From contig JACOWW010000005.1 in the NCBI GenBank assembly GCA_016176605.1, positions 127 through 64,126 on the forward strand: a DNA stretch of 64,000 bases, read 5' to 3'. Numbering within the stretch: the first letter of the stretch is position 1; every line of letters starts with the position of its first letter. The position numbers and the translations under genes are program-made. This DNA comes from Candidatus Saccharimonadota bacterium (lineage in GTDB: Bacteria; Patescibacteriota; Saccharimonadia; Saccharimonadales; UBA10212). Positions 10,356-62,005 of the stretch are shown here, in pieces. A model generated the notes under the pieces. The model saw nothing but the letters and a program-made list of their open reading frames with translations, was not told the DNA's origin and made no database searches.

Positions 10356-10378
10356 TCACCAGCCAAAATACTTAACTA

Positions 10379-10452
10379 GCTACGCCCCGTACCAAAACCT
10401 GAGTGGAGAAGTCTGCAATCAGATTACGAAACATCAAGTTATGGTGCTGGGG
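10379..10452 (+). repeat. Hairpin element copy A (family of four)
   Basis: It is the reverse complement of copies B-D and lies 3' of the plus-strand oxidase gene. A further 20-bp stem encloses it (10357-10376 / 10452-10471). Confidence 0.8.
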
Positions 10453-10466
10453 TCAAGTATTTTGGC

Positions 10467-10552
10467 TGGTGGGTGAGAGAGGATTTGAACCTCCAAGCCT
10501 TGCGGCACCAGAACCTCAATCTGGCGTGTTTACCTGATTTCACCACTCACCC
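10467..10552 (-). tRNA. tRNA-Leu(GAG), CCA encoded
   Basis: Manual fold: acceptor GGGTGAG/CTCACCC, anticodon loop TTGAGGT, long variable arm. Confidence 0.88.
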
Positions 10553-11602: not shown

Positions 11603-11700
11603 GCATTTTGCATTTTACAGTTTGCATTTATCATTAATTTTTCATTGATCAATGATCATTGTTAATTCATTGAAAATTGTGAATTGATAATTGATAATTG
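11603..11700. repeat. Degenerate heptanucleotide (period-7) tandem tract
   Basis: It reads GCATTTT GCATTTT ACAGTTT GCATTTA TCATTAA TTTTTCA TTGATCA ATGATCA TTGTTAA TTCATTG AAAATTG TGAATTG ATAATTG ATAATTG. Confidence 0.75.
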
Positions 11701-11721
11701 CTTTTGCCAAAAGGCAAAAGC

Positions 11722-16229: not shown

Positions 16230-16445
16230 CTACTGGGCGACAATTGTTATCAAAATGCTAGCAGCAAAGATAAAAACTAAGATGATAGTCAGCTGGTGCA
16301 ATGTTTTGTCTGACCCGCGCCGAATGGTGTTGACTTCGCCGCTACCGCCCAAACCGGCCCCCAAGCTAGCGCCCCGTGTTTGAATCAAGATCAAAATTAT
16401 CAGCAGCACGACCGAGACGATGGTTACATAATTCCAAATATTCAC
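16230..16445 (-). CDS. secG: Preprotein translocase subunit SecG
   Basis: The 71-aa protein has two TM helices and 'LIQTRGASLGAGLGGSG'. A GGAGG SD precedes the GTG start. Confidence 0.85.
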   Translation of the reverse strand: MNIWNYVTIVSVVLLIILILIQTRGASLGAGLGGSGEVNTIRRGSDKTLHQLTIILVFIFAASILITIVAQ

Positions 16446-16488
16446 AACGCACCTCCGGCGCCATTAACCATTTTCGATTTACCTTTTA

Positions 16489-16562
16489 CCCCAGCATTAA
16501 AGCTTGATGTTCCATAATCTGATTGCAGACTACTCCACTCAGGTTCTAATGCGGGGCAAGCC
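16489..16562 (-). repeat. Hairpin element copy B
   Basis: See the finding. It lies in the intercistronic spacer between the DUF360-like gene and secG. Confidence 0.8.
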
Positions 16563-16570
16563 ATACATTT

Positions 16571-16654
16571 ACCATTAACTATTAACCATTGATCGTGGAT
16601 AACGGAAAACGGATAACGCACGGTAAATGGTGAAAGGTGAACGGTCAACGGTTG
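16571..16654. repeat. Degenerate heptanucleotide tract
   Basis: It reads ACCATTA ACTATTA ACCATTG ... GGATAAC GGAAAAC GGATAAC, then GCACGGT AAATGGT GAAAGGT GAACGGT CAACGGT. Confidence 0.75.
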
Positions 16655-16656
16655 AT

Positions 16657-17022
16657 TCATGTTTCCTCCATAATTTTGGTTACCAAGAAGTTAACCAACC
16701 CAACAATTATACCAGTAACAATGGCCACGCCGAGGTTTTTGACGTACAAAGGATCGTATAACCAGCTGGCAATTAAAATCAAAAAGCCGTTTAGCACCAG
16801 CATGAACAGTCCAAGGCTGAAGATGATGGCCGGGAAAGATAGGATAACTAAAATCGGCTTTAGCGCCATGTTGACTAAGGCCAAGAAGAACCCAGCGCCA
16901 ATTACCGTACCAACACCTATGCCTACGCTCAACCGGTCAGGCCCCAGTAGTGAAGCGGCGATCCACAGTCCAAGTCCAGAAATAATCCAGCGGACAAAGA
17001 AATGCGTTAAGAAATGCTGCAT
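16657..17022 (-). CDS. DUF360 / phage-holin-4-2 family membrane protein
   Basis: The small protein has four TM helices with a family-like layout. The start was set at ATG 17022, 8 nt after TACAAT; the listed TTG at 17040 is an alternative. Confidence 0.65.
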   Translation of the reverse strand: MQHFLTHFFVRWIISGLGLWIAASLLGPDRLSVGIGVGTVIGAGFFLALVNMALKPILVILSFPAIIFSLGLFMLVLNGFLILIASWLYDPLYVKNLGVAIVTGIIVGLVNFLVTKIMEET

Positions 17023-18696: not shown

Positions 18697-18793
18697 ATTT
18701 GCTCCAATATGATAACAAAGGTTTGTCACCTTAAACGTAAGGTGTTATTATTTAGCGGACTATTAACTAACAGGAAGAAAGGAGCAGCCAAAA

Positions 18794-18847
18794 ATGAAAA
18801 TTGAAAAATATTACCTAGCAGACCTGGTTGCTCCAGCAGCCTGTTAA
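18794..18847 (+). CDS. Possible 17-aa upstream ORF (MKIEKYYLADLVAPAAC)
   Basis: A strong GAAAGGAG SD lies 7 nt before the ATG. The ORF lies 65 nt upstream of the ABC exporter gene. It is too short to score. Confidence 0.3.
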   Translation: MKIEKYYLADLVAPAAC

Positions 18848-29738: not shown

Positions 29739-30003
29739 ACCTAAAGAGTACCGAGTCCTTAGTCCTTAGTCCACAGCTAACCCCCCATCATTGACTGTCA
29801 AGCGAGCCCCAAAAATGAACAAACCCCGAGCAAACGGATGAAGCTAGGCTCAAGCGAGAGCCGAATAAAGCCAAAAGATAGTCCTGAACCTCATCTAAAG
29901 AAAGTGAAGGGCCGACTGTAAGGAGTCCTTTTGGCGCGGCGCAGGTCCAGTTTAGATTCAATCGTGCTTTGCGAAAGGTTTGTGAGGTTTTGGGGTGAGC
30001 GCC

Positions 30004-34424: not shown

Positions 34425-34497
34425 AAAGTTCAAAAACCAAACACCAAACACCAAACACCAAAAATTGAAATTTGGTAATTTTAGTTTATTTGAAGTT
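34425..34497. repeat. Degenerate heptanucleotide tract
   Basis: It reads AAAGTTC AAAAACC AAACACC AAACACC AAACACC AAAAATT GAAATTT GGTAATT TTAGTTT ATTTGAA. A second short run, GTTTGAA GTTTGAA, lies at 34541-34563. Confidence 0.75.
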
Positions 34498-34570
34498 TGC
34501 CCGGCCTTCGCAGCCAAGCTTGCTTCGGCGAAGTAGGCAAGTTTGAAGTTTGAAGTTTTGAATAACGAAT

Positions 34571-38182: not shown

Positions 38183-38256
38183 CCCACGCACCAAAAACTT
38201 GAAGCTCTATAATCTGATTACAAACTACTCCGCTCAGGTTTTGGTGCGGGGCAAGC
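38183..38256 (-). repeat. Hairpin element copy C
   Basis: It fills the mnmA-alaS spacer. Confidence 0.8.
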
Positions 38257-38267
38257 AGAGGTAGAAA

Positions 38268-39392
38268 CTAAACAACAATCCCGCCGCCAAGACAGACGTT
38301 ACCAGAGTAGAAGACGGCGGATTGGCCGGGAGTTAGGGCGCGGATTTCTTCATCAAGTTTAACTAAAGCTTCAAAATTACTTAACAAGTTAAGTTTTTTG
38401 ACTGGAATAAGTTTTGCCCGATGGCGTGTTCGCACCTGTAGGGACTGTTCCTGCAACGGTGCTTCGTTAATCCAGTGGATATCAGCCAGATTAATCTGGT
38501 TGCTCCAGAGCTTTTTGTCTTGGAGGTCGGTCGTTACGTAAACTTCGTTCTTTTTCATATCCTTGCCAGTGACATAGTATGGTAAACCACCACCCACATC
38601 TAGACCGTGGCGTTGACCGATGGTGTAGAAAATAGCCCCATCGTGCTCGCCAACTGTCCACCTCCGCCGGCCGGCGGATTGGTCAATGATTTTGCCCGGC
38701 TTTTTATCAACATATTGGCTTAAAAAATCTTTAATGCCAATCTTACCTACGAAACAAATGCCCATACTTTCTTTTCGATCGGCCGAAACCAGTTTGTGCT
38801 TTTTGGCTAGCGCCCGAACCTGCGGCTTGATTAAATTACCAAGCGGGAAGATAGTTTTTTGTAGAGCTTCTTGAGTTATGCGGTATAAAAAGTATGTCTG
38901 ATCCTTATTGGCGTCTTTTGCTTGCAAAAGACGAGGAACTAGTAATTGGGAATTAGGAATTAGCTTTTTGTCTGCCTTTTTACTATTTTCTATTTCCTGA
39001 TTGCTATTTTCTATTTGGGCGTAGTGGCCGGTGGCTATATAATCCGTTCCGTCATCAATTGCCGTTTCCAAAAATAGCCGAAACTTGATTTCTTGGTTGC
39101 ACATGATATCCGGATTTGGTGTGCGGCCAGCTTTGAATTCGGCCAGCATATAGTCAACAACTTTGTGCCTGTACTGCTTTTCGAAATCGTACATTTTGAA
39201 GTCGATGCCTAGCTGTACGGCCACGCGCTTAGCGTCCTGATAATCATCTTTCCATGGACACTTAACTCCCGGAAAATCCTGGCTCCAGTTCTTCATATAG
39301 ATGCCAACAACTTCATAGCTCTGCTGTTTGAGCAGCAAAGCCGCCACAGAGCTGTCCACTCCTCCGGATAATCCGACATATACCTTTTCCAT
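38268..39392 (-). CDS. mnmA: tRNA 2-thiouridine(34) synthase MnmA
   Basis: It has the PP-loop 'GLSGGVDSSV', 'ATGHYA' and 'KDQTYFLY'. It carries an internal low-complexity insertion. Confidence 0.95.
   Translation of the reverse strand: MEKVYVGLSGGVDSSVAALLLKQQSYEVVGIYMKNWSQDFPGVKCPWKDDYQDAKRVAVQLGIDFKMYDFEKQYRHKVVDYMLAEFKAGRTPNPDIMCNQEIKFRLFLETAIDDGTDYIATGHYAQIENSNQEIENSKKADKKLIPNSQLLVPRLLQAKDANKDQTYFLYRITQEALQKTIFPLGNLIKPQVRALAKKHKLVSADRKESMGICFVGKIGIKDFLSQYVDKKPGKIIDQSAGRRRWTVGEHDGAIFYTIGQRHGLDVGGGLPYYVTGKDMKKNEVYVTTDLQDKKLWSNQINLADIHWINEAPLQEQSLQVRTRHRAKLIPVKKLNLLSNFEALVKLDEEIRALTPGQSAVFYSGNVCLGGGIVV
38941..39016. repeat. Heptanucleotide-repeat tract inside the mnmA coding sequence
   Basis: The plus strand reads GGGAATT AGGAATT AGC... 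and CTATTTT CTATTTC CTGATTG CTATTTT CTATTTG. It encodes 'QIENSNQEIENSKKADKKLIPNSQLLV'. Confidence 0.7.
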
Positions 39393-39500: not shown

Positions 39501-41190
<1,690 letters not shown>

Positions 41191-41997
41191 TCATTGAACA
41201 TTAAGCTGTCGCCTGGCTCTAGAGTAGGTCCAATTCAAGTCAAAGTGGGTGTCGTCTGACTTTTCGTGTGCTACTCGCATGGCGCGAAAACGGCTGGCGT
41301 ACTGGGCCAGCTTTGATTCCAAAATAACTTCAGATAGGGCAATGCCTGTCATGGCGCTTTCCAGGTGACCCACTACGGCTAAAGTAGTGGGCTCAAAAAT
41401 ATAGTTGCTTTCGCTGATGATTTCTTCCCCTGGTTTAACATTGGCGCCGCGCGCGGCTATGGTCGCGCCCAGAGCTATAGTTTTAACGTCCTGCTGCATG
41501 AGCGAAACGTAAGTTTGATAATAAACCACAGTCGAGTTGTATTTTTGGACTTGGGCGACAATCGGTGCGATATTGATATTGCGTTCGCTGCCGGGTAACT
41601 TGAAGTTTAGCTTGGCCTGCAGGCGGCGCTGGGCCAGTTGGGCAATGCCGTGGTAGCCGATAACTATAATGTCGTTTTTCTTTGGATCGTAGTGCGCCAG
41701 CGCCTCAGTAATAAGCCTTAGGTCAATATCACCGCTAAAGCCGCCTTCAGAAGTAATAAGGATCATCAGCTCCTTGTTTTCGGCGGCGTGGCGTTGGGTA
41801 CGTCCAAAATTAAACGAGCTACCTACCCGTATCTGTTCATAAATACGCCACAAATCGTCGAAGAATTGCCCACTGCGCAGTACTTGGTCTTTGATTTGGG
41901 CTATACGAGTACTAGCAATACCTTCAAAAGCACTTGTCAGCTCAACCATCACAACTGATAGTTCCAGTTCCGAGCGCAAATCATTTAGGCGCCTCAC
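41191..41997 (-). CDS. atpG: F-ATPase gamma subunit (short)
   Basis: It has 'ILITSEGGFSGDID' and 'YIFEP', and a C-terminal helix 'ESKLAQYASRFRAMRVAHEKSDD'. It uses a GTG start. Confidence 0.82.
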   Translation of the reverse strand: MRRLNDLRSELELSVVMVELTSAFEGIASTRIAQIKDQVLRSGQFFDDLWRIYEQIRVGSSFNFGRTQRHAAENKELMILITSEGGFSGDIDLRLITEALAHYDPKKNDIIVIGYHGIAQLAQRRLQAKLNFKLPGSERNINIAPIVAQVQKYNSTVVYYQTYVSLMQQDVKTIALGATIAARGANVKPGEEIISESNYIFEPTTLAVVGHLESAMTGIALSEVILESKLAQYASRFRAMRVAHEKSDDTHFDLNWTYSRARRQLNVQ

Positions 41998-42082
41998 CCC
42001 AGGCCGCCTCTCTTCGAGTCTGAGCCTGAGGGCTCATCCCTCAGAGTCGAATGACCGGCGGCAAATCTCAATTTACAATTAT

Positions 42083-42155
42083 CCTCAGCATAAAATCTTG
42101 AAGCTCCGTAATCTGATTGCAGACTACTCCGTTCAGGATTTAATGCGGGGCAAGC
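42083..42155 (-). repeat. Hairpin element copy D
   Basis: It lies in the 259-nt atpA-atpG spacer. Confidence 0.8.
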
Positions 42156-42159
42156 AATT

Positions 42160-42250
42160 TTTAATGATTTATCATTGATCATTTTCCAATTGTTAAATGG
42201 CAAATGTGAAATCAACGGTGAATGGTGAATGGTGAATGGTAAATGGAGTG
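42160..42250. repeat. Degenerate heptanucleotide tract
   Basis: It ends with CAACGGT GAATGGT GAATGGT GAATGGT AAATGGA (42213-42247), directly 3' of the atpA stop on the transcribed strand. Confidence 0.75.
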
Positions 42251-42256
42251 ATGTAG

Positions 42257-43699
42257 TCATTTTTGGGCTCCTTGCAAGGGCACCACAGCTTTTTCCTTTA
42301 ACCTAGCCAGAACTTTGGCATAAGCTTCACCGGACTTAATATAGCTGCTAACTTCGGCGGCGGCTTTTTTCAGTCGGTCGACCCTTAAGCCCGGTATAGG
42401 CGTGTCAGATAATATCAAATCAAGCATCAATTGTTGGCTTATCAGCCCGTATGTTTCGCCCGGTACCTGTGTAAACAACTGATGTAACTGATTACCGGCG
42501 GCTAATACTTTGTGGGTAGTGGCAGCCATTTCGGTGCCAAAGTGCGAAAATTTTTGGGCTTTGGCGTAGTCCGCCATAAGTTTTAAGGCCGTAGCGCTTT
42601 GACTTTTTTGCCGGGCATTTTGTCCAACCCCGCCGACACGAGTTACTGATAAACCCGAGTTTAGCGCGGGGCGCAGGCCCGACCTAAAGACATCCATATC
42701 TAAAATCCACTGGCCATCGGTTATTGACATTATGTTGGTGGGTAAATAAGTTGTTATGTCACCAGCTTCTGTCAAAACCACCGGGATCGCCGTCATAGCG
42801 TGGTGGTTAGCTTTTAACTTACCGGCCCGTTCCAGTAAGCCGGAGTGCGCATGAAATATGTCGCCCGGGTAAGAGTCGCGGCCGGGGTTGGTGCCAAGCA
42901 ACAGTGAGATTTCGCGGTAAGCGTGGGCGTGGGCGGTCAGATCGTCATAAATCACAACTACGTCCTGGCCGGCCTTCTGCCAGAGGTATTCCCCCAGCGC
43001 ACAGCCGATATAGGGTGCCAAATAACTATTCACCAACGACTCGAAAATGGTCGAAACAACGACTATAGATTTTTGCAGAGTGCCAGCATCGCTTAAGCGC
43101 GACAACAAGATATCTACGTCACTGCGGCGTTTAGCGATAAGAACATAGACTACGACCTGGTCTGTGCTGCGTTGGTTAATGGCAATTTGGGTGGCCAGGG
43201 TGGTTTTGCCAGACTTACTGTCACCCAAAAGCGCTATACGCTGGCCCCTCACGATAGGGAACACTGTATCTATTAGCGTAACGCCGGTTTCTAGTTGAGT
43301 ATCTAGAAGTTCCCTTTGGTAAATCGGCGGCGTAGAATTAAAAACTAGCCAGTAAGCGTCGGCGGCAATGGCGCCCTTGCCGTCCAATGGTTCGCCAGTT
43401 ACTGAAATTACCCGGCCAACAAAGTCCTTGCCAACCTTAGCCGTTAAATTTTCTTCAGCGACAACCGCTAAGGTACCTATTTTGAGTTGTGATGTCCCCT
43501 GCCTTAGCACCATTACCCGATCTTCCAATATATCGCGCGTGAAGCCGCGGCTGCCATCTTCGAAAATTACTAACGAATGGATACTCACCGGCTGGAGGCC
43601 TTTAACCGTTATTAAGAAACTGTTTATGGCCACAATTTCGCCTACCGGACGGCCGGCATCGACCAGTTTTTGGAAATGTTGCGAGGCCTGGGTCTCCAT
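42257..43699 (-). CDS. atpA: F-ATPase alpha subunit
   Basis: It has the P-loop 'GDSKSGKTT', 'PGRDSYPGDIFHAHSGLLERA' and 'NSGLSVTRVGG'. Confidence 0.9.
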   Translation of the reverse strand: METQASQHFQKLVDAGRPVGEIVAINSFLITVKGLQPVSIHSLVIFEDGSRGFTRDILEDRVMVLRQGTSQLKIGTLAVVAEENLTAKVGKDFVGRVISVTGEPLDGKGAIAADAYWLVFNSTPPIYQRELLDTQLETGVTLIDTVFPIVRGQRIALLGDSKSGKTTLATQIAINQRSTDQVVVYVLIAKRRSDVDILLSRLSDAGTLQKSIVVVSTIFESLVNSYLAPYIGCALGEYLWQKAGQDVVVIYDDLTAHAHAYREISLLLGTNPGRDSYPGDIFHAHSGLLERAGKLKANHHAMTAIPVVLTEAGDITTYLPTNIMSITDGQWILDMDVFRSGLRPALNSGLSVTRVGGVGQNARQKSQSATALKLMADYAKAQKFSHFGTEMAATTHKVLAAGNQLHQLFTQVPGETYGLISQQLMLDLILSDTPIPGLRVDRLKKAAAEVSSYIKSGEAYAKVLARLKEKAVVPLQGAQK

Positions 43700-61218: not shown

Positions 61219-61990
61219 CTAAAGTTCTTGCTTATGTTTTAGGTAAGTGTTATAATGTTCAACGTACCTTGAGTTTATGAATTCATTCCCTCTTTGGGGC
61301 TTACCAATTTTGTGAAAACACGCAGTGCAGGTTTTTGCAAAATTGAGAGGAGTAGCCACAGCGCTAAGCCGAAGCTTTTGTCGATCCGGCAAAACAAGGC
61401 AAGCTCGTAGGCTTCGACGAGGGGCTGATTTCAGCTTGACGGTGTACTTTACCAACTAGTTTGCAGGTCGGAATGCACTGAACGTTATCCGGTGCAAACC
61501 AAACAAATGCAATAGCATTTATTTCAGGAGGCGGTTTACTAGCTGCTTTCCGAAAGCGATTTTCAAATCCTTTCAAGGCTTTGGCTTTCGCACCAGCTTA
61601 CGTCTAAAACACGTTTAGCCGCGCATACATCGACACCAGATAGAAGTTAATGCGTGTCATATCATCTGGTTGCTCGAGACTTACTTTCCATAAGTCTCGT
61701 TAAGACTTCGGAATAGGAAACGCCACTTTTTGACCATTTACCGGTAGCATTTCCAAATAAGGGCCTGCCATGCAAGATTACTCAATCTGTGAACAATCCT
61801 TGACGCAATCAAGCAATTTTTTGCTTCTCACCGTATCGTTCAGATACGCTTTGTCGTAAGAAAATTACTTGCTTATCGCCAAATTATTGCTCTCAAACCT
61901 TGAGTACCTTACATGGCAGACCCTATCAAATGGCCTAAACCTGTAGAAGACTAGCTAGATAAAACATCGGACCCGGTTGCAATCACCGGC
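61219..61990 (-). pseudogene. Probable decayed gene, with protein-like fragments in several frames
   Basis: Minus-strand fragments such as 'ILHGRPLFGNATGKWSKSGVSYSEVLTRL', 'DDMTRINFYLVSMYARLNVF' and 'KGFENRFRKAASKPPPEINAIAFVWFAPDN' are separated by stops or frameshifts. The identity is unknown. Confidence 0.25.
61228..61256 (+). promoter_or_regulatory. Near-consensus extended -10 promoter TTGCTT-17-(TGT)TATAAT facing an ORF-poor region
   Basis: The -35 box is at 61228-61233, TG at 61248-61249 and the -10 box at 61251-61256. Confidence 0.5.
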
Positions 61991-62005
61991 AGCTCCACCA
62001 AAAAC

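Follow-up and report, generated by a model that had tools for sequence, protein, structure and literature searches.

A previously undescribed, putatively mobile family of small hairpin repeats in Saccharimonadales genomes, with long target duplications

Analysis of a 64,000-nt stretch of Saccharimonadales DNA (hereafter the window) and of related genomes and metagenomes points, on balance, to a previously undescribed family of small (~74 bp), non-coding and non-autonomous repeats that appear to be mobile, as comparisons between genomes suggest, and specific to the Saccharimonadales (Saccharibacteria/TM7, CPR). The members of this family are probably best read as MITE- or REP-like hairpins which would have been inserted with long target duplications and thereafter kept intact. 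A mobile hairpin of the REP/MITE kind was one of three candidate roles offered for the element in a first-pass annotation of the window, and it is the one now favoured by empty or different sites in relatives and by the long target duplications. Saccharibacteria and other CPR genomes are tiny and usually thought poor in repeats; the present repeat is conserved across many species, exhibits textbook covariation, and has apparently inserted even into ATP-synthase and ribosomal-protein operons.

Four copies were located in the window, at 10379-10452 (+; copy A), 16489-16562 (-; copy B), 38183-38256 (-; copy C) and 42083-42155 (-; copy D), with scores of 72, 82, 88 and 86 bits respectively in a covariance model, a search with which yielded no fifth copy in the window. 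The coordinates and strands first recorded for these copies were borne out, the 28-nt core CTGANNGGAGNAGTNTGNAATCAGATTA having four matches in the window at three or fewer mismatches against an expectation of 0.00 from 100 shuffles. Copy A lies 3' of a FAD-oxidase gene and is convergent with tRNA-Leu (10467-10552, minus strand), copy B lies between a PF04020 (former DUF360) gene and secG, and copy D occupies the atpA-atpG spacer, while copy C fills the mnmA-alaS spacer, starting 12 nt past the mnmA stop and ending 15 nt short of the alaS start. Pfam searches agreed with the flanking genes as originally named, identifying FAD oxidase, PF04020, SecG, MnmA, AlaS and the alpha (AtpA) and gamma (AtpG) subunits of ATP synthase, and the window proteins exhibited 60-82% identity with those of syntenic loci from Rifle groundwater MAGs, which assigns the window to a Saccharimonadales genome.

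Alignment of the four window copies gave a mean column identity of 81% over 94 columns, and the fold predicted for each copy was a single long, irregular hairpin (-23 to -34 kcal/mol; z-scores against shuffles between -2.8 and -5.3). Three parts make up the core of copy D (42109-42136, minus strand): the 5' side of the middle stem, the GGA that belongs to the 3x3 internal loop of purines, and the apical stem of 8 bp, GUAGUCUG/CAGAUUAC, which is capped by a CAAU loop and in which one G.U pair is invariant. The arms of copy B are of the CAUUAGAA/UUUAAUG type and those of copy C of the CACCAAAA/UUUUGGUG type; the alignment upheld the arm sequences quoted in the first-pass annotation, inclusive of two C-G to U-A double changes in copy C relative to copies B and D, and likewise the C-to-U change with retention of a G.U wobble in the inner hairpin of copy C. 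Around copy A, a perfect inverted repeat of 15 bp, CCAGCCAAAATACTT / AAGTATTTTGGCTGG (window 10364-10467), lengthens the hairpin, and the copy may have been inserted within the loop of a pre-existing terminator common to the FAD-oxidase gene and the convergent tRNA-Leu. A nested arrangement like that of copy A was also recorded in MAG locus L027.

Scanning of one genome per species with the core GGAGNAGTYTGYAATCAGATTA returned 32 loci, 31 of which were in MAGs of Candidatus Saccharibacteria, Saccharimonadales or Patescibacteria; the remaining one (L023, Bacteroides) was rejected as a chance core match without arms, as was L085 (flagellin-like gene). Metagenomes yielded at least 120 loci with the core pattern, and the covariance model located ~170 copies among the matches listed, corresponding to 123 site clusters. 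With ~74 bp, ~170 copies at ~123 sites among those matches, and four copies in 64 kb, the family is thus small, non-coding, multi-copy and dispersed in the manner of MITEs. Exact-core copies nevertheless numbered only 1-4 per representative genome, with one in a complete 669-kb chromosome, which is unlike the bursts typical of MITEs and REPs and fits a selected host function as well. Searches of viral contigs with the core pattern, and BLAST searches against plasmids and phages, gave no matches. In line with the initial opinion that this was not a known RNA family, Rfam 15 recorded only tRNAs and tmRNA when the whole window was scanned at gathering thresholds, a single spurious lncRNA match of 4.6 bits for copy D at E<=10, and nothing relevant for variant copies in loci L043 and L051; known ribozymes, SRP RNA, tRNA-like RNAs and riboswitches were consequently set aside, Rfam giving nothing for them at E<=10. 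Literature searches on Saccharibacteria repeats, MITEs and structured RNAs found nothing relevant.

The consensus structure opens with a 5' lead, GCYU, beyond which lie a G+C clamp (GCCCCG/CGGGG), a variable stem rich in A/U, and a middle stem of 5 bp (CUGAG/CUUCAAG) in which a C.A mismatch is conserved and a U is bulged. Main-subfamily copies have, inside these stems, an internal loop of 3x3 purines (GGA versus RNA) and then the 8-bp apical stem, GUAGUCUG/CAGAUUAY, which includes the invariant G.U pair and ends in a YAAU loop; because most copies were found via an exact 22-nt core pattern, the apparent conservation of this core is inflated. Rarer subfamilies retain the arms and middle stem and carry a different apical hairpin, type 2 being characterised by a covarying apical stem with a GAAUA loop and type 3 by an extended apical stem, while one copy bears a larger insert. 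Such variant-apical copies were located at L051 123-214 (-), L043 1488-1578 (+), L113 1740-1831 (-) and 1634-1725 (-), L139 3205-3299 (+), and L065 3145-3259 (-). The two copies in L113 are both of type 2 and lie in tandem, ~106 nt apart, and two further tandem copies were seen in L032 (292-379 and 400-487).

The arms constitute two imperfect inverted stretches of ~27-30 nt that pair along their length, as would the terminal inverted repeats of a MITE, although their variation with compensation is atypical of transposase-binding inverted repeats. The compensatory changes first noticed in the window copies are real and were substantiated with 82-170 further copies: double (both-side) changes were present at 16 of 19 outer pairs in 37 sequences, and at 18 of 19 in 82 distinct sequences. 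Paired cells amounted to 90-92% compared with ~80% in column shuffles, not one of 500 shuffles reaching any observed measure, and fell to 31-50% when the partners were slid by 1-3 columns. Whole A-tracts were observed to flip to T-tracts, with the partner arm changing in step. Covariation in the apical stem is not judgeable from copies selected by pattern; in the less biased sample of nine copies found by the model alone, six had a U-A pair replaced by C-G. That the hairpin is not a structureless selfish repeat is strongly supported, because the covariation itself is so.

The same data bear upon the proposal that the repeat is a DNA-level host element, namely a cruciform or protein-binding site with a role in nucleoid organisation, replication, recombination or DNA uptake, which had spread by duplication. 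A precedent exists in the REP/BIME elements of enterobacteria, which bind host proteins, and the independence of position from orientation together with conservation in place would be compatible with such a role. A duplex or cruciform predicts no strand asymmetry, yet the top strand was the more stable in 119 of 122 copies (-33.3 versus -27.3 kcal/mol), and arm G.U pairs numbered 373 on the given strand and 128 on its reverse complement. The inversion of A-tracts to T-tracts with compensation argues, moreover, for pairing rather than for recognition of duplex sequence, and we know of no candidate binding protein, so that a DNA-level role of this type appears quite improbable.

The reading as a mobile hairpin draws principally on differences between relatives in the sites occupied. 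Within a syntenic cluster consisting of a 442-aa gene, alaS and mnmA, the element was present at three different sites: in the mnmA-alaS spacer and sense in the window, between alaS and the 442-aa gene and antisense in L002, and 3' of the 442-aa gene in L010. The site of copy B is empty in L004, where the PF04020 stop is directly followed by the secG start, compared with ~200 nt of intervening DNA in the window, and at the 3' end of ychF locus L025 is empty and L017 filled.

Direct duplications in exact ungapped register, such that the last L bases upstream of the element match the first L bases downstream, accompany many of the insertions. Duplication scores for 31 of 115 site representatives exceeded the 95th percentile of cross-locus controls (~6 expected), and those for 16 of the 115 exceeded the 99th percentile (~1 expected). 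Outside arrays of 7-nt period (heptamer arrays, vide infra) the duplications were variable in length, 31-59 bp, and were decayed copies of the target; inside such arrays, where window copies B and D lie, their lengths are ambiguous. Copy B has a possible flanking duplication of 31 nt (16560-16590 and 16456-16486, 19 of 31 positions identical), and none was detectable for copies A and C.

The content of the duplications, which includes relics of genes, tRNAs and terminators, indicates that they derive from the target. The 36-37 nt duplication in L017 covers the last eight codons plus stop of ychF, with a relic reading VEFKFNV-stop past the element and the gene end IEFRFNV-stop before it, while the 39-40 nt duplication in L002 comprises a C-terminal relic of alaS. 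In L051 a 40-nt duplication corresponds to the 3' end of tRNA-Leu (T-loop, acceptor stem and CCA), in L043 a second T-loop, acceptor stem and CCA have been copied from the adjacent tRNA-Gln, and in L066 a 54-nt duplication corresponds to a terminator hairpin. A tRNA-like interpretation of the variants in L043 and L051 was considered and rejected, their tRNA-like appearance being due to target duplication of the neighbouring tRNA-Gln and tRNA-Leu 3' ends. It follows from a long target duplication that the 3' end of the affected gene or tRNA stays intact, with the relic on the other side. In L002 (4380-4600) the stop of the upstream alaS copy has since been lost, such that alaS ends in the element (...EKVAGAPAPKT-stop), and the old C-terminal codons plus stop persist as the relic on the other side. 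This alaS is the only real gene found to read into the element; in-frame insertion into real proteins, comparable with the Rickettsia palindromic elements, was otherwise discounted as ORFs covering the element were mostly spurious.

A second and unrelated dispersed repeat of ~82 nt, with a terminator-like hairpin GAGGAACCCGCGTGGGGTTCCTC, was encountered at the 3' end of ychF in L007 (902-982, minus strand), flanked by a 30-nt target duplication of the ychF end (28 of 30 positions identical). Its relatives occur at L048 6280-6360 (identical), L040 1671-1719, L043 1300-1344, L057 3693-3763 and L060 743-791, and its 30-nt duplication implies that the long-duplication route may be general in Saccharibacteria genomes.

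Comparison with established systems places the element close to several of them without coincidence with any one. Bacterial MITEs, such as Correia/NEMIS of Neisseria, are likewise small, non-coding, dispersed through intergenic DNA in either orientation, bounded by terminal inverted arms, attended by target duplications, and divisible into subfamilies with common arms and different interiors. The element departs from them in its variable duplications of 31-59 bp in place of a fixed 2-10 bp, in its conservation of pairing instead of a fixed transposase-binding sequence, with a core more conserved than the middles of the arms, and in its low copy number; no parent insertion sequence is known for it. 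No transposase or other recurrent non-housekeeping gene was detected near copies in ~1 Mb of flanking DNA, in which the neighbouring genes had housekeeping functions (ychF, uvrA, ligA, ribosomal proteins and an RRM protein), and the same ~1 Mb contained no solo arms outside full copies that might betray an autonomous element or parent insertion sequence.

The REP/REPIN elements with their RAYT (Y1 HUH) enzymes, and the hairpin ends of IS200/IS605, resemble the element in combining a strand-specific imperfect hairpin, conserved irregularities, and pairing kept across copies with mobilisation in trans, which for the element is putative. Those systems, by way of contrast, make no target duplication, and REPs reach hundreds of copies with RAYT genes flanked by REPs, whereas no linked gene was seen here. 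The one arrangement suggestive of the latter, a pair of inverted copies 1 kb apart in L001, proved to flank rpsH and rpsN and not a RAYT-like gene. Integron attC sites are similarly a poor match, the copies being single, present in both orientations, and situated between atp, spc and alaS genes, with no attC boxes (GTTRRRY/RYYYAAC) at the element ends as read from the alignment. The ERIC/IRU repeats of enterobacteria also form a conserved imperfect palindrome, present in intergenic and operon spacers in both orientations in several species and with a possible effect on mRNA; they belong to another taxon, are ~127 bp in length as opposed to 74 nt, and bear no sequence relationship to the element, and we know of no description of long target duplications for ERIC.

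The closest parallel to the duplications is provided by insertions with long variable target duplications, as described for IS1630 (19-26 bp), IS1549/IS1634 (8-514 bp), and restriction-modification gene units with duplications of ~45-49 bp and longer, often over gene 3' ends and mostly in naturally competent species, no mechanism having been established (PMC2853133, PMC2266710). As in the cases treated by Furuta et al. (2010), filled sites with direct duplications of 30 bp or more of unique target could be set against empty ones (L017 against L025, L002 against L010), with no mobility gene alongside. The shared features are therefore long variable direct duplications, often over a gene or tRNA 3' end, and the lack of an adjacent mobility gene; the L066 copy further resembles IS1630 in that terminator-like inverted repeats were duplicated. 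The cargo differs, being a 74-bp non-coding hairpin rather than an insertion sequence or gene cassette, as do its recurrence at more than 100 sites and its CPR host, and a search of the literature by phrase brought up no small non-coding element with duplications of this kind.

Once inserted, copies have changed ~4-5 times more slowly than their flanks. Across ten site clusters with diverged members, some of which are paralogous or have one shared flank only, the flanks differed by 22% and 20% and the element by 4.7%, or by 6.7% when the 22-nt search core was left out. In the cleanest pairs, L136/L007 and L042/L075, flanks differed at 19-20 and 20-27 of 70 positions, and the element at 3 of 72 and 7 of 73. 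Copies with decayed duplications (mean identity ~0.57, an estimate itself biased by being measured at the best-scoring L) retained ~23 arm pairs, a number equal to that in copies for which no duplication was detectable. Such slow change implies that either selection or gene conversion keeps the copies intact; the copy-specific arms within one genome (window copies A and C versus B and D) argue against simple homogenisation. Slow evolution and kept pairing could, however, reflect host function or gene conversion and not the needs of mobility, and together with the low copy number leave room for a host function.

One such function, the first of the candidate roles originally offered, would be that of a cis-acting RNA in polycistronic mRNAs, selected for its effect on the host transcript, whether as a site of processing by RNase III or RNase Y or as a stabiliser of 3' ends. 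In the window, each of the four copies has the orientation of the gene immediately upstream, and all lie within or after operons, including highly expressed ones (atp and, elsewhere, the spc ribosomal-protein operon), and a stable hairpin with covariation and G.U asymmetry presents the usual RNA signatures, to which the more faithful retention of copies than of flanks may be added. The first-pass annotation had described the element as always on the transcribed strand, which holds for the window and fails for the family. Among 123 site clusters, with gene orientations that rest on crude ORF calls, tandem genes were associated with 43 antisense and 16 sense elements, and a further 18 clusters lay between convergent and 14 between divergent genes; the antisense placement in L002, between alaS and the next gene, was confirmed by a tblastn check. 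A single spc operon in L001 carries one sense copy and one antisense copy, namely the inverted pair mentioned above, and relatives have no element at the same operon junctions, such that no given junction needs it. Random orientation coupled with a lack of covariation had been proposed at the outset as the mark of a plain selfish repeat: orientation is indeed mixed, which by that reasoning argues against cis-RNA function, yet covariation is strongly supported. The intercistronic RNase III sites of T7-type phages, which are also repeated irregular ~30-bp hairpins with an internal loop between cistrons, differ in being all co-oriented and fixed in position where the family is mostly antisense and mobile. 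A selected cis-RNA is on these grounds unlikely. The transcript of an operon copy would nevertheless carry a hairpin with a predicted stability of -27 to -35 kcal/mol that could affect mRNA processing or stability, possibly as a secondary effect and not as the raison d'etre of the element.

Profiles of 45 nt on each side of ~107 copies revealed no conserved position beyond -2/-1, a flatness that implies no fixed promoter and no T-run. The terminator or attenuator role among the original candidates is consequently unsupported, nothing downstream being conserved and a T-run being absent; the lack of downstream T enrichment, the antisense bias, and the 14 sites between divergent genes are all foreign to an intrinsic terminator. 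The flank profiles similarly offer no promoter and terminator at fixed distances, as would be expected if each copy were a gene with a promoter of its own for a small RNA, equal to the structured strand, that acts in trans or binds protein. Strand-specific structure, a highly conserved apical core and the low copy number per genome could each be accommodated by such genes, and in the complete chromosome of L003 a canonical hairpin plus T-run terminator lies downstream of the single copy, which runs antisense to the ORFs on both sides. Over the ~107 copies, by way of contrast, there is neither a conserved upstream promoter signal nor a downstream T-run, many copies are only 10-20 nt from flanking genes (copy C, for example), no complementary target was found in the window, and sites are not orthologous between genomes, all of which renders an independent RNA gene very unlikely.

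With a mobile hairpin as the preferred reading, insertion has taken place at many unrelated intergenic sites, in either orientation, with duplication of a long and variable stretch of target. The form under selection may well be a folded single strand, to which the long variable duplications, the conservation of pairing over that of end sequence, and the strand asymmetry all point; single-stranded DNA would be a likelier candidate than mRNA, given that copies run mostly antisense to neighbouring genes and lack a promoter. An enzyme acting in trans, from a gene at some other place in the genome, would presumably recognise this form, with an insertion route of the 'long, variable target duplication' kind. 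A bolder proposal, to be entertained only tentatively, is that the element represents the first small non-coding recurrent cargo of this route, whereby an enzyme of the host, or an orphan one, would insert a folded strand (a hairpin of DNA or, conceivably, an RNA copy) into the reduced genomes of naturally competent CPR bacteria, selection thereafter retaining it as a structural module.

Copies B and D represent a subfamily that lies within composite units of ~200 nt that are rich in 7-nt-period arrays. The unit of copy B (16442-16660, minus strand), which is ~200 nt in length and absent from L004, has such arrays on both sides of the hairpin, and that of copy D (41994-42260, minus strand) combines CCATTCA arrays (42217-42246) and AATGATN/AATTGNN arrays with the hairpin. 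The unit of copy B contains a stop-free frame of 72 codons extending from an ATG that overlaps the PF04020 stop (ATGA) to a TGA that overlaps the secG start (GTGA), and the unit of copy D an equivalent 88-codon frame that leads from the atpA stop (ATGA) to the atpG start (GTGA). Similar bridging frames, with peptides inconsistent among copies, were detected in L001 (rpsH-rplF and rplE-rpsN), L010 and L081, and in all at 13 of 67 tandem sites, five of these spacers having lengths of 190-260 nt for which openness by chance is rare.

The exactness with which these frames join an upstream stop to a downstream start over 190-260 nt in copies B and D, L001, L010 and L081 might suggest that the element belongs to a gene for a small protein. 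From copy to copy, however, the frames are not the same; antisense copies use another frame; compensatory arm changes alter the peptide non-conservatively; Pfam searches of the copy B and D frames gave no match; and 54 of the 67 tandem sites have no bridging frame. A translated module is accordingly scarcely credible, and the open frame is more likely to have been selected for translational coupling than for a protein.

The retention of a mobile hairpin of this type in compact genomes may be explained by its long duplications, which keep whole any gene or tRNA 3' end that is struck. With its 74 bp and its recurrence as cargo in more than 100 natural insertions, the element would offer a far better handle on the long-duplication mechanism than sporadic gene cassettes have done. 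For annotation, it is a source of spurious ORFs in Saccharibacteria MAGs (of the 41994-42260 type, mis-annotated as hypothetical proteins) and of relic gene and tRNA ends, and a covariance model of it would serve as a clean lineage marker.

Several minor observations relate to the heptamer arrays and to the remainder of the window. Arrays of 7-nt period were frequent and mostly in intergenic spacers, being recorded at 11603-11700, 16566-16652, 18790-18809, 29754-29772, 34431-34462, 34539-34558, 38934-39016, 41119-41135 and 42217-42246, with units that included CCATTYA/TRAATGG, ATTGATA, CAAACAC, AAGTTTG and others; equivalent arrays were found in MAG loci L001, L006, L010, L080 and L081. All three frames of sense-strand CCATTTA arrays are stop-free. 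At 11690-11721, just before tRNA-Gly (11722), an AATTGATAATTG array of the kind that flanks the element elsewhere is followed by a perfect hairpin, GCTTTTGCC-AAAA-GGCAAAAGC, which could be either an unrelated terminator or a footprint of the element. Finally, the Rfam tmRNA match at 61421-62000 (+), which was not called by ARAGORN, extends over 580 nt against a 374-position model, which suggests a tmRNA that is unusually large or bears an insert.
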